64,000 nucleotides of DNA from Candidatus Bathyarchaeia archaeon (GTDB lineage: Archaea; Thermoproteota; Bathyarchaeia; Bathyarchaeales; Bathycorpusculaceae): positions 47,330-111,329 of the forward strand of contig JBEKKX010000013.1 in the NCBI GenBank assembly GCA_050010515.1. The letters run 5' to 3'. A program made the translations under genes and the position numbers. The notes beneath the pieces are model-generated. The model did no database searches, was not told the origin of the DNA, and was given only the letters and a program-made list of their open reading frames with translations. Within the stretch, counting starts at the first letter, position 1; each line of letters begins with the position of its first letter. Shown here piece after piece: positions 20,491-61,773 of the stretch.

Positions 20491-20627
20491 CATAATTCAT
20501 GTTTAAAGCAAAAATCTTGCTTATTTTCTGCAAATAAGCTGTTCAAACCTTGCTGTGTTTTTGCGCCTGCAGTGTTATTGGTCATACAGGTACAAAAAGG
20601 GAAAAAAGAGGTTTTGCGCGCGCTGAA

Positions 20628-37911: not shown

Positions 37912-38022
37912 TTGGAACTTGATTTTTGAATATTTAGGAAAATAAGGCTTAGAAATCGCGCGCGCTGCGCACACAATCAAAACCAACGTTAGACTCTACA
38001 TAGTCAATACACGCGTTAAAAA

Positions 38023-38370
38023 TCAGAAGAGTATTAGCAAGCCTTCTCTGCTTCCGTTGGGTTGAATCATGGCTTTCCGTTTGTTCAGAGGCTCGTCTGT
38101 TTCTATTTTTGTTCCCATTAGGGCTGGGATTGAGAATTCACGTGACACAATAGCCAGATGCGAGCCTACCCCACCAGTTTTGCAGACAATCCCTGCAAGC
38201 TTGGAAAGAATCGGTCCAAGAGTGGTCGTTCCTGCGTCTTCGACTATAACGATTTTCCCGTCAGCTCCTTCCTTCCAGAGATTAATCACATCCTGAATCG
38301 ACGTGACCACCCGAAGCTCACCCTCGGCCGAAACATTCAGCGTAATCATTCCACTACCTATAACCTTCAT
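38023..38370 (-). CDS. Stand-alone PEP-utilising enzyme mobile (phospho-His swivel) domain
   Basis: AGIVCKTGGVGSHLAIVSREFSIPALMG. Confidence 0.88.
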   Translation of the reverse strand: MKVIGSGMITLNVSAEGELRVVTSIQDVINLWKEGADGKIVIVEDAGTTTLGPILSKLAGIVCKTGGVGSHLAIVSREFSIPALMGTKIETDEPLNKRKAMIQPNGSREGLLILF

Positions 38371-38503
38371 GACCTAGCCTTCAATTCAACATGGGTAGGC
38401 TACTTATAGCCAAAGTTGGATATTAGATTTACTTGAACAGCGCTGATGCCAAATCTTATTTACATCAAACCCGAATATCAGGTTCAGCGCAGAGGCAAAA
38501 GAT

Positions 38504-39682
38504 ATGAAGATTGCAGAAATCAACGAACTTATCACTCACCTGAGCAAGGTCTTCTCCAACATCGTTCTCGAAAGGAGCCTACTCGAGTCCAAATTGTTTC
38601 CCGTTAACGCTTACATAAGTCTCGGATTCTACCAGACCTACCACGAACTTTACGCTGTCATGAAACAAGTATGGGACACGATCACCCCCGAAGAATTGGC
38701 TAAAAAAAGCAGAAGCCTACTCTCGCCCATACAAGCTCTCTCAATTTCCTACCTTTGGCTTTACTATTCGCTCGCTAGAATGGGCACAATCTACAACAAA
38801 TGCGGAGGCGACCCCAGCAAAGAACATCTGGAAAAAAGAGAACAATGGAAATGGATGCTTGAAAAATGGTACAGCCTGGCGACACACTACTTTGCCTCTG
38901 GCAAACCTACCGTGGCAGCTTCTAACAGGAAAATCATCGGTCTAAACGACGACTCAATCGCTTGGGTCAAAGACCACATACAACCAGTGACTCCTGAACA
39001 AACGAAGAAGGTAAGACGAATCATAGGCTCGGTTGACCTTTACTCTTTCATAGACGAATGCGAAGCAAGAGCCAAAATCGTGAACCACGGTCCCTATCCG
39101 CTTGGAAACGGAGAAAACCTCGTGCTCACGGAATACACAAACCTCTATGATGGACACGACAGATTGTGGCTTCCGTGGTCAGCAACCGAAGCTAAATTCC
39201 CTTCTTCAACCTTAGGTGTCGCCATGACACTCAAAGATGCAAAAACCACCTTCAACGACATCGGCACCATGACGGTGGACCCCGGCGACTACTCCAAACT
39301 TGTAAAGGGCATCGCAGCATACAAAAAAGGCGGAGACCAAATAGTCTCAGTCGGACTGGATGAGCTATCCTCATACGCCGAAGCTGCAGACAACGCCCAA
39401 GCCGAACTCTACATGAAATTCGCCCAAATGGGCAGGTCGCAACTGCTCATCTCGGGCGCCACCGCTTACTGGAAGGGCTTCGCAAGGTACACAGACTCTA
39501 TAGGAATCACAGAAAAAGTCTCATGGAACCTCTCTAAAACAGTTCTTGACGAATACCTGCCCATATTCATGAAAGCCAACGAGGACCCAGCCTTCTCAAG
39601 AATCAAAAGAAAAATCATAAAAATGAAAACCCTTCCATTTCTAAAAGAAAAAGACCCAATAATGTACCTCATGCCCGAGTAA
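38504..39682 (+). CDS. Hypothetical protein, possibly the substrate-binding partner of the swivel domain
   Basis: 392-aa clean ORF divergent from the swivel-domain gene; no motif that I can assign. Confidence 0.8.
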   Translation: MKIAEINELITHLSKVFSNIVLERSLLESKLFPVNAYISLGFYQTYHELYAVMKQVWDTITPEELAKKSRSLLSPIQALSISYLWLYYSLARMGTIYNKCGGDPSKEHLEKREQWKWMLEKWYSLATHYFASGKPTVAASNRKIIGLNDDSIAWVKDHIQPVTPEQTKKVRRIIGSVDLYSFIDECEARAKIVNHGPYPLGNGENLVLTEYTNLYDGHDRLWLPWSATEAKFPSSTLGVAMTLKDAKTTFNDIGTMTVDPGDYSKLVKGIAAYKKGGDQIVSVGLDELSSYAEAADNAQAELYMKFAQMGRSQLLISGATAYWKGFARYTDSIGITEKVSWNLSKTVLDEYLPIFMKANEDPAFSRIKRKIIKMKTLPFLKEKDPIMYLMPE

Positions 39683-39699
39683 CAAAAGCATCAGATAGG

Positions 39700-40605
39700 A
39701 TGATGAAAATGTCTAATTCGATCAAAGAAACCGACGACTACTTTCACACCGCAGAAAAGGAACTAGACTGGCGAGAAAGCTACTACTTCAACTTTGCAGA
39801 TCCCGAAAACAAAACAGCTGGATTCACCACCATAGGGATTCTGCCCAACCAGAAGAAAGGAGAATTCATCCTAGCTCTATTTCACGAAGACAAACAAATG
39901 GTCTACTACAAGGAACAAACACCCATAAATGATCAATCATTGGGCCTTCTCTCAGATAGAACCCTGACCTACAAGCTTGTCGAACCCATGAAGAAATGGG
40001 AAATCAATCTCGCCAGCGAAAACCTCAACGTGCACTTCCAGTGGAAAGCCCGATTTCCGCCGTTTGATTTTGGAAAGGGAAGCGGAACCTCTTGGAAAGC
40101 GCACTTTGAACAGTCAGGCACGGTCGAGGGAGAAGCAACACTCCCCGACGGAAGAAAAATCCGAATCAGAGGCTACGGTCAGCGCGACAAGAGCTGGGGG
40201 ACTCGAGACTGGCACATAGAAAATTGGTTCGCATTCCACGCGCAGTTTCAAACATATGCCATCGGCTTACGAAAAGACACCGTAAACGGCTCTCCTCACA
40301 TCTCAGGAGGGTTGTCCTCCGCGAAAAAACAGACGGCAGCCTCTCAAATAGACCTGCAAATAAACTACGAGAAAGACGACACGAAAACCCCAACCGGAGC
40401 CTCGACGACAATACACTACGCAGACGGAAAAGTCGACACGCTCGTTTCCAAACTGATTTCACCCAAGAGCTTCGTCAAGTTCTCAAGAAGCTTCCCAAAA
40501 GGAACCACAGAACTCTTCGAAGGAATGGCAATACACGAGTGTACCACTACGGGAGAAAAAGGAACCGGACTCATCGAATTCCTCTTCACGCACCCAAAGC
40601 CTTAG
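39700..40605 (+). CDS. AttH/tocopherol-cyclase-like beta-barrel protein
   Basis: WRESYYFNF, HFEQSGTVEG, GYGQRDKSWGTRDW. Confidence 0.7.
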   Translation: MMKMSNSIKETDDYFHTAEKELDWRESYYFNFADPENKTAGFTTIGILPNQKKGEFILALFHEDKQMVYYKEQTPINDQSLGLLSDRTLTYKLVEPMKKWEINLASENLNVHFQWKARFPPFDFGKGSGTSWKAHFEQSGTVEGEATLPDGRKIRIRGYGQRDKSWGTRDWHIENWFAFHAQFQTYAIGLRKDTVNGSPHISGGLSSAKKQTAASQIDLQINYEKDDTKTPTGASTTIHYADGKVDTLVSKLISPKSFVKFSRSFPKGTTELFEGMAIHECTTTGEKGTGLIEFLFTHPKP

Positions 40606-40698
40606 TCCAGCAAGTAAACGTTGAACTTGTGCAAAGACATCGGCAAAACTAAAGCAATTTCAAATCGAAGAAGCCGAAATGTTCTGTTATATGTGCCC

Positions 40699-40962
40699 TC
40701 ATGATACGGTTATGGCTTTCTGGGGACATGCTGTCACGCATTTTCCGCAGTGGGTGCACAGATCCAGCCAGACCGCCGTTATTTGCCAGAATTGCGGATC
40801 ATTGCGGTTTGCCTCTTTGGCTCCGAGGGTTTCGTGGCGAAGGAAAATCGCCGGATCACAAACCTTGAGGCAAACACTGCATTCTCGAGGGTCAATGCCA
40901 CCAGTCGCATTTCCACATTTCGAATAATCAATTCGAATTCTCGTTTTCTTCATCATCAACAA
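40699..40962 (-). CDS. Ferredoxin-like Fe-S protein
   Basis: IDYSKC..ECSVCLKVCDP and CTHCGKCVTACP. Confidence 0.85.
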   Translation of the reverse strand: MLMMKKTRIRIDYSKCGNATGGIDPRECSVCLKVCDPAIFLRHETLGAKEANRNDPQFWQITAVWLDLCTHCGKCVTACPQKAITVS

Positions 40963-40971
40963 CTTGTCTCG

Positions 40972-41841
40972 CTAGTACATGTTGGCAATTCCCGGAACGC
41001 TTTCCCTGGGAATCAGCGTAATCGCGCCGAACTTACAACGATCTCTGCAAAGTCCGCAGCCGAAACATTTGTTTTGGTCAATTACTGTTCTACTCAACGT
41101 AGGCGAATACCTTAGTGCCCCAAATTGGCAATAGGAAACGCACGCCCTGCAACCTTGACAAAGGTCGGGGTTGACGTCGGCAACGTACTCTGCCTTATAG
41201 ACGGCACCCAAGCCAAAGTCGGTTCGAAGCCTAAGACCTCCACACTGAGGGACCTCGCAAGAACAAATCGCGTTAACATAAGGGACAGGCTGGAACCAGA
41301 CCGTTGCGATTCTTCCTTTCTTGTTCTGCTCCTCCAAAGCCGCAACAGCCTCTTCCCTACCCAACCTGAACTTGGTTTTTTCAGGAATAAACCGGGGCAA
41401 CTTCTCGATCACACCCGACAGGCAACCGAAGTTGATGCAGCACACATCCTTAACTCCCCTCTGCATCATCCTGCACATACAGTAGTTCTGAATTATAGGT
41501 TCAGCCGCCAAGTTCATCATGATAAGCTTGGCTTCTTCAATAGGAATTACCTGCCCAAAATGCCCGTCCGCTCTAACCGGATTCCGATTCTTGCTCTCAG
41601 AATGAATCATGCTTTCAGCCTTCCAACGCACTACGCGTCCGATAATTGGCATTTTAAGCTTGTAGCCCATCCCTATAGAAGAGAGACCCATGATCTTACG
41701 GATGTAGACTGTCTCAAAGTTTCTCCACTGCTCCTCAAGATAAGCTTCAAGATTCTGACTATCCGCAAGTTCATTGGAGTAGTTCTTAGCGTTAAGATAC
41801 CACTTTCCACCTGCACCGTGTTTCATGCACCACTTACACAT
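40972..41841 (-). CDS. Cys-rich 4Fe-4S binding protein
   Basis: MCKWCMKHG, CMCR, ICSCEVPQC; C-terminal CQGCRACVSYC and CFGCGLCRDRC. Confidence 0.88.
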   Translation of the reverse strand: MCKWCMKHGAGGKWYLNAKNYSNELADSQNLEAYLEEQWRNFETVYIRKIMGLSSIGMGYKLKMPIIGRVVRWKAESMIHSESKNRNPVRADGHFGQVIPIEEAKLIMMNLAAEPIIQNYCMCRMMQRGVKDVCCINFGCLSGVIEKLPRFIPEKTKFRLGREEAVAALEEQNKKGRIATVWFQPVPYVNAICSCEVPQCGGLRLRTDFGLGAVYKAEYVADVNPDLCQGCRACVSYCQFGALRYSPTLSRTVIDQNKCFGCGLCRDRCKFGAITLIPRESVPGIANMY

Positions 41842-41971
41842 TGGAAAATCACTTAAGCCGCAAAGTCAATAGCTTAAGTTACACTCGTCTAGGTATTTAA
41901 AAATTAGGTAACGCCAAGACAGAGCGAAAACGAACGGAGGAAAAAGAACGAGAACAAAACTTAAGCCCAAC

Positions 41972-42946
41972 TTGAATTCTGAACCACTAAGTCACCAGCC
42001 CGGAGCCGACCGAGAATGGAACGAATCATACTACTTCGTTTTCTACTCAAAAGAACAAGAATTCGGCGGCATTACAAGACTGGGTTTCAAACCGAACAAA
42101 CAAGAGGGTATGACCTTTTTTCTTCTCTTCCTGCCCGACGGAACAGTTGCCATGCACCAGACCACAGAAAAAATAGGAAACTCCAGCTACCCCAAAGTAC
42201 CAAGCGTTAACGGCATGCTACACCAAAGGAACGACAACGGCACATGGAACTACAATTTCAGCGGCAACATGATGCTCCTTAAAAACCCACAAGACCTCCT
42301 TAAGATACGAGAAAAACCATCCTTGATATCTGGAATTCAGAAGGCCACAATGGACCTCACTTTCACACCCATAAACAAAGTCTACGAATACAGCAGCCAC
42401 ATGACAACGGAGAGTCGCGAACTCGGAAAAAAAGCTGGCGACGCTCACTGGGAACAGATCGCCAAAGTGAAAGGTAAAGTTGTCCTGGGCAACCGATCAT
42501 TCAACGTAATTAACGTTCTTGGACAGAGGGACCACACTCACGGCGTACGCGACTGGACTGGAATCGGAAGCTGGCTCTACTACGTTATCTGGTTTTCCGA
42601 ACGACTGGCCGTAAACCCTGCAGCCCTAATTTCTGACGAAGGAAAAGTATCCACAGGAGGGTTCATTTTCAAAAACGGAAGGAACATTCCAATTACGAAA
42701 ATTCGTGTCCTGGACCAGCAGTTCAGCGACGACATCTTCCCCGTCAACTCAAAACTGGAGCTTGTCGATGAAGACGGCCACACTCATGTACTGAAAGGAA
42801 AAGCAGGACCAGCAGTTCCGATCCCCTTCAGCGACGAAAAAGGACGAACTTCCATTCTTACACAGTCTTTCGGAACTTTCGAAATGGACGGTCTGTCTGG
42901 TGGTTACGGAACATTTGAAACATTACGGGCAAACCGCGCATCCTAG
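41972..42946 (+). CDS. AttH/tocopherol-cyclase-like beta-barrel protein (paralogue of 39700-40605)
   Basis: WNESYYFVF, HWEQIAKVKG, GQRDHTHGVRDW. Confidence 0.7.
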   Translation: MNSEPLSHQPGADREWNESYYFVFYSKEQEFGGITRLGFKPNKQEGMTFFLLFLPDGTVAMHQTTEKIGNSSYPKVPSVNGMLHQRNDNGTWNYNFSGNMMLLKNPQDLLKIREKPSLISGIQKATMDLTFTPINKVYEYSSHMTTESRELGKKAGDAHWEQIAKVKGKVVLGNRSFNVINVLGQRDHTHGVRDWTGIGSWLYYVIWFSERLAVNPAALISDEGKVSTGGFIFKNGRNIPITKIRVLDQQFSDDIFPVNSKLELVDEDGHTHVLKGKAGPAVPIPFSDEKGRTSILTQSFGTFEMDGLSGGYGTFETLRANRAS

Positions 42947-43041
42947 ACCGTGTATTTGCGCGATTTTCACTTAGGCTTAAATACGAAGCGCCTCAAACGT
43001 AATACCCTACCCGTGTTGCCAAGCAAAGAGGAGAAACAACA

Positions 43042-44772
43042 ATGGACAGCTCTAACAGCTCTGAGAAAGAAGTTATATGGACAAGAGGCTATTCAGACGA
43101 CTACTGGAATGACCCTGTTTCCCCCCTGTTTTTCGAGCTGCTCGGGGACCAACTAACCCAAATTGTTAACACTGAACTCAATGGAATTATGGGATATTCC
43201 CGCCTGGGCTCGGGAGAAACTGATAAGCTCCTGAGGCTGTATCATGGTCACGCATACTTCAACCTTGAAGTTCTCAAACGGAAGGTTGAGTACGAGATCC
43301 CTCCATTCGTTCGCAACGACGACATCCTAAACTACTTCATGGAAGGCAGTGGACCATACGGCAAAAAAACCATGAAAAATCAGCCTTTCAAACTGAACAA
43401 GAGAGTTTTGGCGGAAATCCGAGTGATGCTCTATGACGGTCAAGGCTCGATAACAAAAACAAACTCGGCATATGAAAAATGGACCAAAGAGAAATTTGAC
43501 CCATTCTGGCAAAATTTCGATTCACGAATAGCAAAAATCAACTTGGAAGGCGACCAATCGGACCTCTTAGAACTGGCTGGAGAGCTGGATCGGTTAATGA
43601 TCGGGCACTTCCGTCTCGTACGGTACGGGATCCCGGTCCACAACATCGGGATGAATCTGATAGCGCAATACCTTCTGGGACGCTTCATAGGCCAAGAAGC
43701 AACTGAGATCTACCCGCTTTTAATATCTGGTCTCGAGCACAAAACAAGCGAAATGAACGAGCGTCTCGTCAAGCTCGCCGGTATGATACGAACTTCAACC
43801 CCTACAAAATCGCTAATCCTAGAAACACCTTCAAATCGCCTTTTCACAGTTCTAATGGCAGATAATACTCCGCAGTCAGAAGAATTTAAGCAAGAATTGA
43901 AGTCGTTCTTACGCGATTTCGGAGTCAGAGGCTTCACCAGAGAACCATATTACCCGCGCTGGCACGAAGCTCCCGAATACGTTTTCGACATCTTGAAATC
44001 ATTAATCCAGGATCAAATTCCAGTAAAAAAAGAACAGAAAATTGCACGAAAGCTACAAACAAGCAGGATTGAACACAGAATAAAGAAGCGGCCGCTAGGC
44101 TGGTTCAAATGGCAACTACTCTCAGTAATTCTTGGGTTCGCAAGAAAATACATAGTATTTCGCGAGAACCAGCGATACAACCTGGACCGATGGATCACCA
44201 TGAACCGCAGAATCTACATGGATATCGGAAGGAACCTGCAAAAACACGGATTCTTGGAGGACCCTTCAGACATATTCTTTCTCCGAAAAAACGAAATACG
44301 AACCCTGATCTCCAGAAAAGGAATCGATGAAGACCAAACCAGAATCCGCCAGGCAGTTTCAAGCAGGAAAGCCGAGTTTCTTAAGTATGAACACGTGACT
44401 CCAGCCAAGTTCCTACAGGGATCTACGGAATTCAATGATCCAGAGAGAAACACCGGCTTCATCCTGCATGGGCTTCCCGCCAGCCAAGGCAGACTAACCG
44501 GAACCGTCCGAGTCCTAAACCGCGTTGAAGAAATTGGAGACGTGCATGCTGGCGAAATACTCGTCGTTCCTCGAACTGACCCCGGATGGACTCCTGTGTT
44601 CAGCAAAATAGGAGGCTTGATCACCGAAACCGGCGGAATCTTATCGCATGGCGCCGTAGTATCCAGAGAATACGGAATTCCCGCCGTTACAAACATCCAA
44701 AACGCTTGCCAACTGCTCCACAACGGCCAAACCGTAACGATTGACGGTTCAAAAGGTATCATCTCCATATAG
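43042..44772 (+). CDS. Rifampin-phosphotransferase/phenylphosphate-synthase-like protein with substrate and phospho-His domains but no ATP-grasp domain
   Basis: DPVSPL, FLRDFGVRG..PRWHEAP, DIFFLRKNEI, GLPASQG, ILVVPRTDPGWTPVF, ETGGILSHGAVVSREYGIPAV, TIDGSKG. Confidence 0.88.
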   Translation: MDSSNSSEKEVIWTRGYSDDYWNDPVSPLFFELLGDQLTQIVNTELNGIMGYSRLGSGETDKLLRLYHGHAYFNLEVLKRKVEYEIPPFVRNDDILNYFMEGSGPYGKKTMKNQPFKLNKRVLAEIRVMLYDGQGSITKTNSAYEKWTKEKFDPFWQNFDSRIAKINLEGDQSDLLELAGELDRLMIGHFRLVRYGIPVHNIGMNLIAQYLLGRFIGQEATEIYPLLISGLEHKTSEMNERLVKLAGMIRTSTPTKSLILETPSNRLFTVLMADNTPQSEEFKQELKSFLRDFGVRGFTREPYYPRWHEAPEYVFDILKSLIQDQIPVKKEQKIARKLQTSRIEHRIKKRPLGWFKWQLLSVILGFARKYIVFRENQRYNLDRWITMNRRIYMDIGRNLQKHGFLEDPSDIFFLRKNEIRTLISRKGIDEDQTRIRQAVSSRKAEFLKYEHVTPAKFLQGSTEFNDPERNTGFILHGLPASQGRLTGTVRVLNRVEEIGDVHAGEILVVPRTDPGWTPVFSKIGGLITETGGILSHGAVVSREYGIPAVTNIQNACQLLHNGQTVTIDGSKGIISI

Positions 44773-44950
44773 CAACATCCGCAAATTCTGCAACGACCGA
44801 TGATTTTTTCTTTCCAATCAAATACAGCACGTTGCGCGCGCTCTACAATGTTGACTGTAAATATGGATATTTAGTCTGTTTTTGTTCTCAAGCATTTGCT
44901 AAATATACAAAAAGTCCTTCACCTTGGCTATAAGCTAGCGCATTAGGTAA

Positions 44951-45514
44951 TCAACTAATTATTTTCTTTATAGCCGCTGCTACTTCTATTGCAGGTTTGT
45001 TTGAATTTACGATAATCCATTTGCCCAAAAAAGCTAGCGAAAGCGCTTTGGTTCTAACCTCACTCAACGCGTCAAAGTCCTCAAACATTTCCCTCTCGCC
45101 ACGAGACTTTGCAATCCGAGAAAGTGCCTCCTCTGGATTAACGTCTAAAAAAATCATTATTTCCGACTGGGGTACAACAAAGGCAAAAAAATGGTAAGCG
45201 ATTTTATGTAGAGGCGCAGGCAAATAAGCCGTACCCATCAGGTACCTCACGAAAATTATATAATCGACCTTTCGCCACGAATAAAGCAGAATTGAACGTA
45301 TTACATCAATCATGTAGAATAACGCAGCGGCGAAATGTGCACTCTTGCCGCTTGAATACAGAAACTGGCGCGCTTTAACTCCGAAGAAATTGTCCTTTTC
45401 AGGGTGAACACGCAAACACACGGTTTTTCCTCCTTTTTCCAGAAACTTCAAGATAAACTGTGCTTGGGTGCTTTTCCCAGAACCGTCTAATCCATCAATT
45501 ATGATTAAAGTCAA
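44951..45514 (-). CDS. Thymidylate-kinase-like P-loop kinase
   Basis: IIDGLDGSGKSTQ, FLDVNPEEALSRI; the DRY motif appears as VRY. Confidence 0.8.
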   Translation of the reverse strand: MTLIIIDGLDGSGKSTQAQFILKFLEKGGKTVCLRVHPEKDNFFGVKARQFLYSSGKSAHFAAALFYMIDVIRSILLYSWRKVDYIIFVRYLMGTAYLPAPLHKIAYHFFAFVVPQSEIMIFLDVNPEEALSRIAKSRGEREMFEDFDALSEVRTKALSLAFLGKWIIVNSNKPAIEVAAAIKKIIS

Positions 45515-45515
45515 A

Positions 45516-46232
45516 TTAAGCCCATCCCTTCAGAAGAAGAAGCAGCAAAGCGCCGAGGAAAGGAACAGTTATGTTATCAAAGCCTCGCGGTGTAAGTGCT
45601 TCAGCAACCGTAGCCACAGCAGCCACCGCCAAAGCAATTAAAACTGAACTGAAAAGGGGAAGAGAATAAAAAGCGGAAAAAAATAATAGACTAACCTCAA
45701 AACTTACAAAACTAAACGCAAACATTGCAACTGAACCCTCAAGGCTTTTTTTGGCAAGAATCCGGAAATGCCGCTTCCCAAACTTTTCACCAACCAAAGA
45801 AGCCGCAGCATCACCATAAGCCATAGGCAAAATCCCCGCAGCAATAACGTAAGGCTTCGCCGAAAAAAACCAAGCCAAAACGGTGTAAGAGATAGCGTAA
45901 AACACCAAACCCAACTGATGACCACCTTTAGTCACCTCAGTCAACTCCGACATTTTCCTGCTAAGACTCTTTACCGGAGAGTAAGGCGAAACCAGAAAAG
46001 TTACAAAAACAAACGGCACTGCAACGAAGAAAGGAAAGTTCAGCGGAAATGTGTTGTATGAGAAAAACGGAATAAGAAAAGGCAAATTCCCGATCATTAT
46101 GTGCAGGAACTTGCGAGAAGAATTCCGAGATAAACCACGCCCGATTTTTCCCGTGACCAAAATCACAATTAGAATATACCCGTAGCAGGAGCCAAGCAGT
46201 GCCAAATTTGCCCAAGCTTCAGTGTCAAGCAT
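45516..46232 (-). CDS. Polyprenol/phytol/dolichol kinase-family membrane protein
   Basis: SRKFLHIMIG, AYGDAAASLVG, KKSLEGS, EALTPRGFDNITVP. Confidence 0.88.
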   Translation of the reverse strand: MLDTEAWANLALLGSCYGYILIVILVTGKIGRGLSRNSSRKFLHIMIGNLPFLIPFFSYNTFPLNFPFFVAVPFVFVTFLVSPYSPVKSLSRKMSELTEVTKGGHQLGLVFYAISYTVLAWFFSAKPYVIAAGILPMAYGDAAASLVGEKFGKRHFRILAKKSLEGSVAMFAFSFVSFEVSLLFFSAFYSLPLFSSVLIALAVAAVATVAEALTPRGFDNITVPFLGALLLLLLKGWA

Positions 46233-46238
46233 GGATGC

Positions 46239-47099
46239 TCACCTAAACATGCCGAAAATGAACGCGAGCAAACCCACGATGAAAAGAATTAGAACAAGTT
46301 TCTTGATTCGGCGAGCGTTCTCACGTGAAGGATTCTTGACCAATAACACTGAACACTCGACCAAACCAAAATCAGTAACTAACACAAAAGGAACAAACCA
46401 AAAAGAAACCAAACCCAAAACCACCGGAAGCGGAGAAAGACAAATTGCAAAACCGTAAAACGACGCTGCCGCCGCCGCAGCCTTCAACTCGCCGAAACGC
46501 ACGGCAAGAGTCTTAACATTCTTGGCGCTATCCCCTTTAACGTCCACGATGCCCTTCGTGATTTCTCTACCCGTGTTCGAAAGGAACGCCATAGAAGCAA
46601 AAAGCAGGACGTTAAGCCGAACCGCATTAACTGCCACCAAATTTCCATACAGAAAAGGCGTAGCCACACATGCACTAACTAAGAAGTTGCCTGGCAGTCC
46701 ACTTCGCTTTCCCACAGTCGTATAAGTTAGCATAAGCGCCCAGGCAACCACAGCGACCACAAGACAAACAATACTTGTGAGGAAAGCGAAAACAAAACCC
46801 ACCACAGAAAGGACACCAGCGAAAATCAACGCACCTTTAACAGTTACTACGCCGCTGGGAATCGGACGCGTAGGCTCATTTATCGCGTCAATGTGGCGAT
46901 CGTAGTAGTCATTCACAGCCATGGCAGCCGCTGTTAAAGTGAAACCAGTCAACGCCCCAAACAAAATGTTTAGCCCAAAAAAGTTTGAGAAACTCGGATT
47001 CCCCAAAACCGCACCCACTAGAACAGCGAAACTCATCATCACACAATTTATCGGCCTCATCAACTTAACAAAACCGCTAACTTCGTGTGCACCCCTCAA
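46239..47099 (-). CDS. Digeranylgeranylglyceryl phosphate synthase (UbiA family)
   Basis: LMRPINCVM, NDYYDRHIDAINEPTRPIPSG, GNFLVS, GREITKGIVDVKGD. Confidence 0.88.
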   Translation of the reverse strand: MRGAHEVSGFVKLMRPINCVMMSFAVLVGAVLGNPSFSNFFGLNILFGALTGFTLTAAAMAVNDYYDRHIDAINEPTRPIPSGVVTVKGALIFAGVLSVVGFVFAFLTSIVCLVVAVVAWALMLTYTTVGKRSGLPGNFLVSACVATPFLYGNLVAVNAVRLNVLLFASMAFLSNTGREITKGIVDVKGDSAKNVKTLAVRFGELKAAAAAASFYGFAICLSPLPVVLGLVSFWFVPFVLVTDFGLVECSVLLVKNPSRENARRIKKLVLILFIVGLLAFIFGMFR

Positions 47100-59040: not shown

Positions 59041-61773
59041 ATGAGCGAAGAGTTAACTCAAAAAAGACTGACTGAACATGGGTTAATAATCGGTAACTAT
59101 GAGTTTTATAACATAGGCGCTACTACAGTCAACCAGCTCAAGAAATGCCAAATTATCCCAAACGAGGATTACAAGGAATATGGAATAAGAAAACCAGATG
59201 CGCTAATTGTTGACAGACGAAATATGAAACAAATTAAGGTTGTCTGCGTCATAGAAGGCAAACCTAATGAAAAATTCGATTCTGCACAAAAGAGAATAGA
59301 TACGATACAACAATGTAATGACCTATGCCAAGTGCTTAATGCAGAGTTAGGTATTGCAACAGATTACACCTCTTTTTCATGGTTTAATCCTAATCAAAAT
59401 AATTCCAAAACAGAGTATTTAGACAGAACAACTAGTGCCAAAAGGAGCTACACCATAATAACGGATGAAAAAGGGAAAGATTTCATAAAAGATTTCACTA
59501 TCGACCAAAAGCAAGATGAAATAGAAATAACAAAGTTAAGCGTAAAAACCAGAAAAAGCATGCAAAACTTAGAGTTAGTAAGAAAAAGCCTTTCTTCAAC
59601 TAACTCCCAGCTTATCGAGGAAAGCGTAAAAGACCCCACTGTTTTAGCAACAAAAATCTGGCAAGATGTTTGGTTTGCCACCGGAGCAACACCACCAAGT
59701 TGTCTATATACCTTTGTTGAATTATTTATTTTCAAGTATTTGAGCGATTTGAATATTTTAACAAAAGATAAGGCAGGAAACAAAGTAAACTTCAAAGACA
59801 TCTATTCTCTTAATCCGAATGAAGCGTTCATAAATTACACGCAAAATGTCCGACCTTTTCTTAAGATAATGTTTCCAAAAAATGAAAAAGATAATACGAC
59901 CATAATAAATGGAACAGTTTTAAATCCTGATGTTGCTCAACATAGCTTAGTCTTCTACAGAATTTTGAAGCGTTTTGATGAATTTGGAGAGTTACGAAAT
60001 ATCGACCCCAGTTTCAAGTCAAAAGTTTTTGAAGAGTTTATGAAAGAAACTATTAGCAGAAAGAATTGGGGACAATTTTTCACTCCTAGAAACATCATTG
60101 ATGCAATGGTTGAAATGTCGGACATTGACAAATTAGATGAGGGGTCAAAAGTTTGTGACCCCGCATGCGGAGTGGGCGGTTTCATACTGGAGCCGATTAG
60201 GGTAAAGGAAAACGGTGTAAACTTCTATTATCAAATTGTAGGAAATGAAGTAAAGTCCAGATTGAATTTCTTTGGCTTTGACAAAGGTTTTGAGAAAGAA
60301 GAACAGTTGGTAATAATCTTAGCAAAAGCGAATATGTTGATTTTTCTGTCTGAACTGCTAAAAAATAATCCCACTATTGCCGAAAAATTTTCTGACTTAT
60401 TTAATTCAACCTTTGAACTGTTATGTAAAACTACTCTGGGTACCTTATCGATAACCGAGTATGACAAATATGATTTGATACTTTCCAATCCACCATACGT
60501 TACAAGTGGAAGTAGCGGATATAAAGAAGCAATTAATGAAGAAACTGTCTTCAAAAAGTATTACAAAACGCAAGGTTTTGGGGTTGAAAGCCTTTTCATA
60601 GAATGGATTATAAACAGTTTGAAACCCTCAAAAAGTGCATTTGTTATTATTCCTGATGGTATATTGAATAGACTTAACGGCATTAAACTTAGGGCTTTCA
60701 TAAGAGATGAATGTATAATAAACTGCATAGTTTCATTGCCGATAAACGCTTTCTATAGGAACCCGAAAAAGACATACATAATATCGATAACTAAAAAACC
60801 TGAAAAAAACGTAGATGATAGAAAGGCACATTTACAAACTGAACCAGTATTCACCTATTTAGTAAGTAATGTGGGAGAAACATTGGATGTGAAAAGGTTC
60901 CCCATCGAAGAAAATGATTTGAAAGAGATGGTTTCTCTCTACAACCAATTCAAAGGAGCAAAAGCAAGTTTCCACTCTGAAAGCAAACGATGTAAAATTC
61001 AACCGATTGATAAATTTGATGCTGTCAATCCAACAAGTCATTGGTCAGTGGATAGATGGTGGTCAAAAGAAGAAAAAGTAAGTTTAGGAATAGAAGAACA
61101 AGAAACCGTTCTGTCCATTGACGAATTTAAGGGGAAAATGAGTGATTTAGAAGAAAAAATACGAGAACTAAACGTACAGTTGCAAGACTTACAGAAACAA
61201 GCAACCTCTCAAGGAAAAATAGACAAAATAGACAAAAACTTAGCTGACGAACAATATTTTGAATTATCTATAGGAGAAAGGATACTTAAAAAGGAAGTTT
61301 TTCAATCAAAGGGAAACATTCCAGTATATAGCGCTAATGTTAATGAACCGTTTGGTTATCTTGATGAAACAAACGTAAGCATTGTTGATTTTGAACATAG
61401 TTACGTACTCTGGGGTATAGACGGTAACTTTGAACTTACAGTAAAACACATGGGGGAAAAATTTGCGATAACTGACCATTGTGGTGCAGTGAAAGTTTTG
61501 GATTCTGGAATAATTCCTGAATACTTAGCTTATCAATTGGAAATTAAGAAATACGAAATGGGTTTTGACAGAAGTTTACGGGCATCTTTAGCAAATATGG
61601 AAACGGTAACTGTGAGTATTCCTATTTTGCCAAATGGCTCTTTCGATGTTGAAAGACAGCGAGAGGTAGTTAAGAAGTATGCGTTTCTTAAGGAAATGCG
61701 TGAAGACATTCAATCACAAATTGAAGATTTGACAAAAGCAACAATAGACTTAGGAGAAAACTCTGCCTCATAA
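59041..61773 (+). CDS. Single-chain restriction-modification enzyme: nuclease + N6-adenine MTase + one target-recognition domain (Type IIG-like)
   Basis: KPDALIVD..IEGK (PD-D/ExK-like), GQFFTPR, CDPACGVGGF (motif I), SNPPY (motif IV), C-terminal HsdS-like IPVYSAN..WGIDG. Confidence 0.82.
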   Translation: MSEELTQKRLTEHGLIIGNYEFYNIGATTVNQLKKCQIIPNEDYKEYGIRKPDALIVDRRNMKQIKVVCVIEGKPNEKFDSAQKRIDTIQQCNDLCQVLNAELGIATDYTSFSWFNPNQNNSKTEYLDRTTSAKRSYTIITDEKGKDFIKDFTIDQKQDEIEITKLSVKTRKSMQNLELVRKSLSSTNSQLIEESVKDPTVLATKIWQDVWFATGATPPSCLYTFVELFIFKYLSDLNILTKDKAGNKVNFKDIYSLNPNEAFINYTQNVRPFLKIMFPKNEKDNTTIINGTVLNPDVAQHSLVFYRILKRFDEFGELRNIDPSFKSKVFEEFMKETISRKNWGQFFTPRNIIDAMVEMSDIDKLDEGSKVCDPACGVGGFILEPIRVKENGVNFYYQIVGNEVKSRLNFFGFDKGFEKEEQLVIILAKANMLIFLSELLKNNPTIAEKFSDLFNSTFELLCKTTLGTLSITEYDKYDLILSNPPYVTSGSSGYKEAINEETVFKKYYKTQGFGVESLFIEWIINSLKPSKSAFVIIPDGILNRLNGIKLRAFIRDECIINCIVSLPINAFYRNPKKTYIISITKKPEKNVDDRKAHLQTEPVFTYLVSNVGETLDVKRFPIEENDLKEMVSLYNQFKGAKASFHSESKRCKIQPIDKFDAVNPTSHWSVDRWWSKEEKVSLGIEEQETVLSIDEFKGKMSDLEEKIRELNVQLQDLQKQATSQGKIDKIDKNLADEQYFELSIGERILKKEVFQSKGNIPVYSANVNEPFGYLDETNVSIVDFEHSYVLWGIDGNFELTVKHMGEKFAITDHCGAVKVLDSGIIPEYLAYQLEIKKYEMGFDRSLRASLANMETVTVSIPILPNGSFDVERQREVVKKYAFLKEMREDIQSQIEDLTKATIDLGENSAS

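Follow-up and report, generated by a model that had tools for sequence, protein, structure and literature searches.

How can two phosphohistidine kinases be kept in a genome that gives neither of them an ATP-binding domain of its own, and on what would they act? The question is raised by a cluster of seven genes (38023 to 44772) in a 64,000-nt stretch of DNA from Candidatus Bathyarchaeia archaeon (assembly GCA_050010515.1, contig JBEKKX010000013.1, positions 47,330 to 111,329), hereafter the window, which an earlier note made from the sequence alone had read as one anaerobic pathway with a split phosphorelay. We found that the seven genes are two kinase-plus-lyase modules with a loosely attached Fe-S pair, and not one fixed pathway. 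The explanation of the whole that we regard as best, namely two modules of a phosphohistidine kinase and a phosphate lyase with the cellular phosphoenolpyruvate (PEP) synthase as loader, is tentative, its chance of holding in full being a little under even. The system itself is real, conserved and unstudied; no publication describing the cluster or the family was found in a literature search that reached few subscription journals and no supplements.

Two separable modules in a seven-gene cluster

All seven open reading frames (ORFs) described earlier are present, at the same places and with the same motifs. Gene g1 (38023-38370, minus strand) encodes a stand-alone phosphohistidine swivel domain of 115 aa (PF00391, E 5e-12) with His71 in the motif SHLAIVSRE, the putative carrier of what we call module A. 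On the plus strand follow g2 (38504-39682), a protein of 392 aa without a Pfam or NCBIfam match above cut-off, which we propose as an acceptor-binding domain (Arg24, Glu/Asp187, Arg189), and g3 (39700-40605), a double barrel of 301 aa (Arg162-Asp163, Arg169) and putative lyase of module A. The minus strand then carries g4 (40699-40962), a ferredoxin-like protein of 87 aa with 8 Cys (Fer4, E 4e-8), and g5 (40972-41841), an Fe-S protein of 289 aa from the Fer4 family with a Cys-rich N-terminal part and a C-terminal 2x[4Fe-4S] part. Back on the plus strand are g6 (41972-42946), a second barrel of 324 aa resembling 25-phosphosteroid lyase (25-PSL; Arg186-Asp187, Arg193) and putative lyase of module B, and g7 (43042-44772), with 576 aa, in which a substrate domain of the type of rifampin phosphotransferase (RPH; Arg374/Glu375/Arg378) precedes a C-terminal swivel with His536 (PF00391, E 1e-24). 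Pfam and NCBIfam scans assigned g3 and g6 to DUF7065/DUF7064 (Rv3169-like, under the NCBIfam cut-off), and the two are paralogous as had been supposed (25% identity over 200 aa, E 7e-13).

The genes co-occur well beyond this window. Among 34 g2 loci, hosted by Bathyarchaeia, Methanomethylicales, Brockarchaeota and Thorarchaeota, g3 lies directly after g2 in every one and a divergent g1 is present in 32; the two loci without g1 begin inside g2. The pair g4+g5 accompanies g2 in 24 of these loci and g6+g7 in 11. Orthologs of g7 (found in 16 of 301 genomes of the class) also occur without g1-g3, across lineages and nearly always with g6 adjoining, and because linkage separates in this way we define g1+g2+g3 as module A and g7+g6 as module B. 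The Fe-S pair is found with module A in Thorarchaeota, with module B in other Bathyarchaeia and alone in all five further genomes that have neither kinase module (L109-L113; g5 77-81% identical). Its g5 N-terminus (18 Cys) matched unnamed clusters only in the atlas, from which no function was obtained. The phosphoryl donor in trans thus survives from the single-pathway idea, and the pathway itself divides into two separable modules. The order and orientation of g6 and g7 are opposite between sub-lineages, g6-g7 on the plus strand in the window and g7-g6 on the minus strand in two related loci (L006, L038). Identity to L006 is only 57-64% for g6 and g7 and 80-92% for g1, g2, g4 and g5.

A free swivel and a candidate acceptor protein

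The catalytic histidine of g1 (His71) is invariant in 32 of 32 aligned orthologs, and several lines of evidence tie this small protein to g2, as had been suspected. The g2 family comprises 160 representatives at 50% clustering (E<=0.001); of 39 members scanned, two carry an N-terminal swivel (P0043, P0105), 36 are without a Pfam family and one is a low-complexity artefact. Swivel-g2 fusions are also encoded on two Rhodococcus plasmids. Co-folding of g1 and g2 scored 0.89 as compared to 0.09 for the best control, a mark that 116 of 157 solved pairs and 2 of 215 mismatched pairs reached; contact agreement between runs was at least 98% and the partner pLDDT at least 91. The modelled interface, which includes g1 His71 and g2 Arg24, Glu187, Arg189 and Thr255, supports rather than shows binding. 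Across all 104 alignment rows Arg189 never varies and an acidic residue occupies position 187. RPH requires its Arg666/Glu667 pair for transfer from phosphohistidine to substrate (PMC4844700). As the conserved Glu187 and Arg189 in the swivel interface recall this pair, we infer that g2 is the acceptor domain, and g1+g2 very probably form a phosphohistidine acceptor pair.

The structure of g2 is predicted with confidence (pLDDT 95.7). Foldseek gave no match in the PDB at E<=0.001 and the best hit of a sequence profile had E 0.08; VIA-align reached at best Z 4.8 (rmsd 4.4, 75 aligned), and RPH was not among the matches listed. Together these fold searches bore mainly on residues 148-309. An atlas look-up (best 0.88) yielded no function. 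The predicted fold thus looks like a new one, failed PDB matching falling short of proof, and the family, to which neither Pfam nor NCBIfam gives a name, seems to be a novel type of acceptor domain in swivel-histidine chemistry. Its members are spread over Asgard archaea and Bathyarchaeia as well as Rhodococcus, Novosphingobium and Methylibium.

An old loss of the ATP-grasp domain in g7

In module B the substrate domain and the swivel share one chain, g7. Residues 229-576 of g7 match RPH (5fbs, E 4e-40), residues 1-228 being unmatched in that search, and Arg374/Glu375/Arg378 align with RPH Arg666/Glu667/Lys670. Elsewhere g7 orthologs are three-domain proteins of about 900 aa, as in Brockarchaeota-type loci (907-911 aa, 62-63% identity) and in 12 of 13 other Bathyarchaeia genomes (the remaining one was not evaluable). 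Among 76 metagenome loci, 51 have the three-domain form, 23 a two-domain form without PPDK_N in the locus and 2 are ambiguous; one of the 23 is a copy identical to the window, and some others are near-duplicates or lie on short contigs. Five two-domain forms make up one clade among 20 rows (support 100/98). A further one, in L172, is a candidate second loss, and one loss could hardly be told from two (p-AU 0.44).

A truncated three-domain enzyme had been named in advance as the finding that would speak against the proposal. The gene is indeed a truncated descendant, yet an old and selected one and not a broken copy. For g7 the ratio of nonsynonymous to synonymous substitution rates (dN/dS) was about 0.09 against two relatives, similar to PEP synthase at 0.08-0.11, these values being approximate as dS is near 1. 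All seven genes gave 0.02-0.2 against two relatives (dS about 0.35-2). Sequence comparison thus indicates that the loss of the ATP-grasp domain in the Bathyarchaeia lineage is old and that the genes have been kept under purifying selection. The truncation of g7, split ORFs in L009 and L038 and a patchy distribution might instead suggest a relic decaying after this loss. The low dN/dS of all seven genes largely refutes decay, and a deep two-domain clade, a clean g7 start just past the domain boundary and intact catalytic residues make a relic extremely improbable.

The missing loader

The genome of the host (G000, 98.5% complete) encodes one PPDK_N domain and one PEP-binding domain (PF02896), both in a PEP synthase of 822 aa (C42:11836-14301), and has three swivels, those of PEP synthase, g1 and g7. 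When all six frames of this genome were searched at maximal sensitivity with a profile built from 14 related ATP-grasp domains, nothing besides PEP synthase was found (next E 0.3). The window is free of PPDK_N domains, as first noted, no lone PPDK_N gene exists in the genome, and the cluster holds no PEP-binding barrel. PEP synthase is the sole ATP-grasp protein in all six cluster-bearing Bathyarchaeia genomes (G000-G005), one of which was judged by PEP-synthase length alone. With the chemistry unchanged, the loader could also be a non-homologous protein that escaped recognition, or its gene could be absent from the assemblies. The genomes are metagenome assemblies and the search at maximal sensitivity covered G000 only. 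We nevertheless consider a hidden loader improbable, as the six genomes agree, including G000 and G197 (98% in 7 contigs), and the 23 two-domain metagenome loci have no PPDK_N either.

Relatives present a different picture. Of 12 Thorarchaeota loci, 11 have a lone PPDK_N gene directly following g1, and second ATP-grasps other than PEP synthase, some of them partial, were found in all four genomes of another family, in G715 and on 5 of 5 bacterial plasmids. In Methanomethylicales the ATP-grasp is intact in two of five cases, broken in one and absent in two. Another five related genomes, one of which also belongs to the first set, have it intact in three cases and in pieces in two. One Methanomethylicales locus (L072:7753-9214) holds a broken loader, a 177-aa PPDK_N fragment that ends at a stop before a barrel of another subfamily. 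Because relatives have ATP-grasp donors, the ancestral system was in our view ATP-driven. Of the donor that had been proposed, in trans or from a non-ATP source, the first half stands and the second is a minority reading. For HpeHI it is established that a separate ATP-grasp protein does the loading in trans, and the ATP-grasp motif of that system is similar to the one in PEP synthase (PMC12167813). Being the only ATP-grasp protein, and given this precedent with its similar motif, PEP synthase is the most economical donor, and we lean, on balance, towards its loading the swivels in trans.

A bolder version makes PEP synthase a hub like enzyme I of the phosphotransferase system (PTS), charging detached swivels from PEP. 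The two accessory kinases, one of them with a new acceptor fold, would then phosphorylate tertiary terpenoid alcohols at the expense of PEP and so bring about their dehydration. One high-energy bond would be spent instead of two, a saving that would account for the loss of the ATP-grasp; we think this version unlikely.

The loss of the ATP-grasp from genes that stayed under selection, possibly with a separate loss in L172, also raises ATP-independent exchange, in which the swivels would shuttle phosphate between organic phosphoesters, the barrels would isomerise, and phosphate would be recycled or drawn from an imported phosphoester; this corresponds to the non-ATP source first proposed. HpeH alone moves phosphate from 4-phosphoacetophenone to acetovanillone (PMC12167813), and the window has two kinases and two barrels side by side. 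Every other sampled lineage, however, keeps an ATP-grasp with the same modules, the second loss is no better supported than a single one (see p-AU above), and phosphate elimination is considered irreversible and in need of net input (PMC8449060). Moreover, a two-domain g7 without g1-g3 within 8 kb (L155) means that g2 is not an obligatory donor for g7. We therefore regard exchange as quite unlikely.

Barrels related to 25-phosphosteroid lyase

A profile of 30 g3/g6 sequences searched against the PDB found only 25-PSL at E<=1 (E 5e-9). With the model of g3, Foldseek likewise placed 25-PSL on top (E 3e-13, TM 0.75, 16% identity), followed by AttH and by proteins that we take to be pericyclases and kievitone hydratase (E about 4e-10 to 9e-9, TM 0.61-0.71). 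The double-barrel fold was confirmed for g3 (2ich TM 0.71, 7a0q TM 0.65), which was modelled, g6 being assigned by homology only. The AttH-type fold expected from the earlier CrtC/tocopherol-cyclase assignment is thus there, although the barrels are closest to a phosphate-eliminating lyase and not to a cyclase. Their Arg-Asp motif and the downstream Arg are invariant in all 30 g3/g6 rows, and the Asp is the residue replaced by Asn in the 25-PSL entry with phosphate and product bound (PDB 9g4c). Taken together these data suggest that the barrels probably act on alkyl phosphates. An aryl phosphate cannot undergo elimination of this type, and nothing in these data favours the lignin-derived phenol first considered over an alcohol.

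Genomic contexts and the substrate

Four genomes of two families (three Bathyarchaeia and G715, in which the operon is split over two contigs) carry a terpene operon with a distant swivel+g2 pair between genes for a class II diterpene cyclase and an Rv3378c-like transferase (L056:2162-10973, L057, L058, L140/L141). The cyclase is Rv3377c-like (match 6vpt, E 3e-70) and the transferase a diterpene transferase (E 7e-30); a three-domain RPH-like kinase is also present, and in L056-L058 ABC transporter and two-component genes. This suggests that the operon product is an archaeal diterpenoid, possibly a terpene-nucleoside, that is phosphorylated.

On bacterial plasmids the swivel+g2 pair is surrounded by catabolic genes and accompanied by a barrel gene and a gene for a truncated PPDK. 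Rhodococcus plasmids (L039:10428-25392, L040, L146:9971-14759, L145:2887-17355) have up to three such pairs, next to which stand a winged-helix gene and a truncated PPDK of the VadK family (NF004531, 785 bits), and in Rhodococcus sp. 008 the operon reads g2, swivel, winged helix-turn-helix, lyase, truncated PPDK. This arrangement suggests that the truncated VadK-like PPDKs of Rhodococcus partner small-molecule acceptors, and g2 proteins could supply a partner for truncated PPDKs of actinobacteria. In Methylibium petroleiphilum PM1 a plasmid segment (L041:8315-12779) with barrel, g2, a 153-aa protein, swivel and winged-helix gene lies just upstream of B12-mutase genes, which presumably serve tert-butanol breakdown; about 25 kb separate this segment from the nearest PPDKs. 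Our search found no relevant literature on these Methylibium genes or on phosphorylation-driven alkene formation. The contexts fit a tertiary or allylic alcohol of terpenoid type, without proof, and we put the chance of a terpenoid or tertiary substrate at about even.

The same neighbourhoods could speak for a regulatory phosphorelay, with the free swivel as a carrier like a histidine phosphotransfer (HPt) protein and g2 as receiver or effector, as proposed for VadK. VadK, itself a truncated PPDK, has been described as a regulatory histidine kinase (PMC13400623), its relatives adjoin swivel+g2 in Rhodococcus, and histidine kinases and receivers flank the terpene operons. Against this, the pairing with a lyase-type barrel is constant, the archaeal core cluster is without regulators and g7 keeps the residues for phosphotransfer to small molecules, which makes a relay very improbable.

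The chemistry might also run in the reverse order or serve biosynthesis. Acting as hydratases or cyclases, the barrels would convert a prenyl double bond into a tertiary alcohol, and the kinases might trap this alcohol or build prenyl mono- and diphosphates in alcohol salvage for terpenoid or lipid synthesis. Kievitone hydratase and AttH share the fold, swivel+g2 stands in the diterpene cyclase operon with an RPH-like kinase and without a barrel, and an operon of lipid type flanks the cluster. This operon (44951-47099) contains dTMP-kinase-like and DGGGP-synthase-like genes and, between them, a gene for a 238-aa membrane protein that we take to be polyprenol-kinase-like, Pfam and NCBIfam having given no match. 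It is common to four close relatives only (the window, L005, L009 and L032), on the g7 side in the window and on the g1 side in the other three, in keeping with local rearrangement. That it is a part of the system is unsupported beyond this sub-lineage, and the middle gene, present in 19 of 61 genomes of the family, is far commoner than the cluster. Since, in addition, the sequence profile finds 25-PSL only and the Arg-Asp...Arg motif matches 25-PSL, we hold the reverse direction to be unlikely.

Proposed mechanism and relation to known systems

We propose that the swivel histidine, once phosphorylated, docks on an acceptor domain (g2 in the case of g1, the RPH-type domain in the case of g7's own swivel) and phosphorylates an unreactive hydroxyl, most likely in an alcohol of terpenoid type that is tertiary or allylic. 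From this ester the barrel of the module (g3 or g6) would then expel phosphate to leave an alkene, a net dehydration. The histidine would be loaded from ATP by a dedicated ATP-grasp in relatives; in this lineage, which has lost it, PEP synthase would most probably act in trans, using ATP via its ATP-grasp or PEP via its C-terminal barrel. The overall logic would be that of the 25-HSK/25-PSL system of Sterolibacterium denitrificans with a different kinase. There a kinase and 25-PSL dehydrate a tertiary sterol alcohol (PMC8449060, PMC11061730), and tertiary phosphoesters are as energy-rich as ATP (PMC8449060), which would make a phosphohistidine donor sensible. Observed behind this proposal are the linkage and fusion of the genes, their homologies, the conserved catalytic residues, the signs of selection and the lack of a further ATP-grasp; the docking of g1 on g2 comes from a model, and chemistry, substrate and donor are deduced.

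Several observations weigh against this proposal. The cluster is accessory and rare, with g2 in 7 of 301 genomes of the class and 22 of 401 of the phylum, and the Fe-S pair is unexplained by the mechanism. The terpene operons gave no barrel gene in a search with the g3 profile, so g2 does not always feed a lyase, and the bacterial neighbourhoods are mixed catabolic (CoA ligases, biotin carboxylase, P450, 2-hydroxyisobutyryl-CoA-mutase type) and not clearly terpenoid. Identity of g3 to 25-PSL is low, similar scores were obtained for AttH, pericyclases and kievitone hydratase, which have the same fold, and the role of the Asp is taken from a mutant PDB entry. The two-domain swivels are 35-43% identical to that of PEP synthase and the three-domain ones 33-41%, hence no convergence is seen. 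Finally, the literature search found no publication on the 25-PSL enzyme itself and none showing PEP synthase loading a foreign swivel.

The system resembles several known ones and belongs to neither of the two closest. With RPH and the dikinases HpeHI, CreHI and PpsAB (PMC4844700, PMC12167813), g7 shares the HpeH/PpsA architecture, the catalytic histidine and the Arg/Glu/basic triad of RPH. It differs in that the cluster genomes G000-G005 have no cognate ATP-grasp, fused or separate, as relatives do, that g7 is paired with a lyase-type barrel, and that module A consists of a free swivel and an acceptor without detected similarity to the RPH domain. The 3-hydroxypyridine (hpd) system was considered and set aside, being an HpeHI-like pair of another family according to the text of its paper.

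The 25-HSK/25-PSL system (PMC8449060; PDB 9fzn, 9g2i, 9g4c) shares the kinase-then-lyase logic proposed here, and g3 and g6 are homologous to 25-PSL, with the same Asp. In contrast, 25-HSK is described as a monomer of 43 kDa that works through a ternary complex and forms no phosphoenzyme (PMC8449060), whereas both kinases here are of phosphohistidine type with a swivel histidine, and none of the seven genes belongs to the direct-ATP kinase family. The cluster also has no Mo-hydroxylase, and a steroid is at most a candidate substrate here. As the kinase type differs and the cognate ATP-grasp is missing, we place the system in neither group. PEP synthase, PPDK, PTS enzyme I and VadK (PMC13400623) have the swivel in common with it, and VadK-like truncated PPDKs adjoin the bacterial swivel+g2 pairs; g1 and g7, however, are without the regulatory Thr two residues before the histidine, and the PEP-binding barrel (PF02896) is absent from the cluster. 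AttH, the pericyclases and kievitone hydratase, of CrtC/tocopherol-cyclase type, share the fold of g3 and were not found by the g3/g6 profile at E<=1.

To our knowledge, dehydration by a kinase and a lyase has to date been a feature of the anaerobic degradation of sterols. The pairing of the kinases described here with relatives of 25-PSL suggests that such dehydration had a further origin, with kinases of unrelated type, and that it occurs in archaea about whose carbon sources little is known. Selected kinases without a loader of their own imply either that PEP synthase phosphorylates foreign swivels in trans or that a non-ATP route exists, and either would be new enzymology.

Flanking motif and neighbouring sequence

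The cluster had been described as lying between two copies of a motif. The motif is present, and it does not mark a boundary. GCGCGCGCT has 23 genome copies as compared to 20.7 expected under a maximal-order Markov model, and GCGCGCGC has 44 copies compared to 40.8 expected at maximal order and only 9-24 at orders 2-5. We rejected GCGCGCGCT as a cluster boundary or insertion mark, since the motif is scattered genome-wide between genes. GCGCGCGC is strongly intergenic, with 36 of 44 copies outside ORFs of at least 150 aa, which cover 75% of the genome. The contexts and flanks of its copies, in the window at 20616, 37958, 44834 and 58731, are unrelated to one another, and of 32 related loci only 2 have it downstream of the swivel gene at a distance of up to 400 nt. 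It is possibly a regulator site or the target of an element. Scans for promoters and terminators, tRNAs and Rfam families gave nothing above chance in or near the cluster. One related locus (L006) has GCGCGCGC on both sides of the cluster. At the end of the window (59041-61773) a 910-aa N6-adenine methylase / Eco57I-type restriction-modification protein is encoded.

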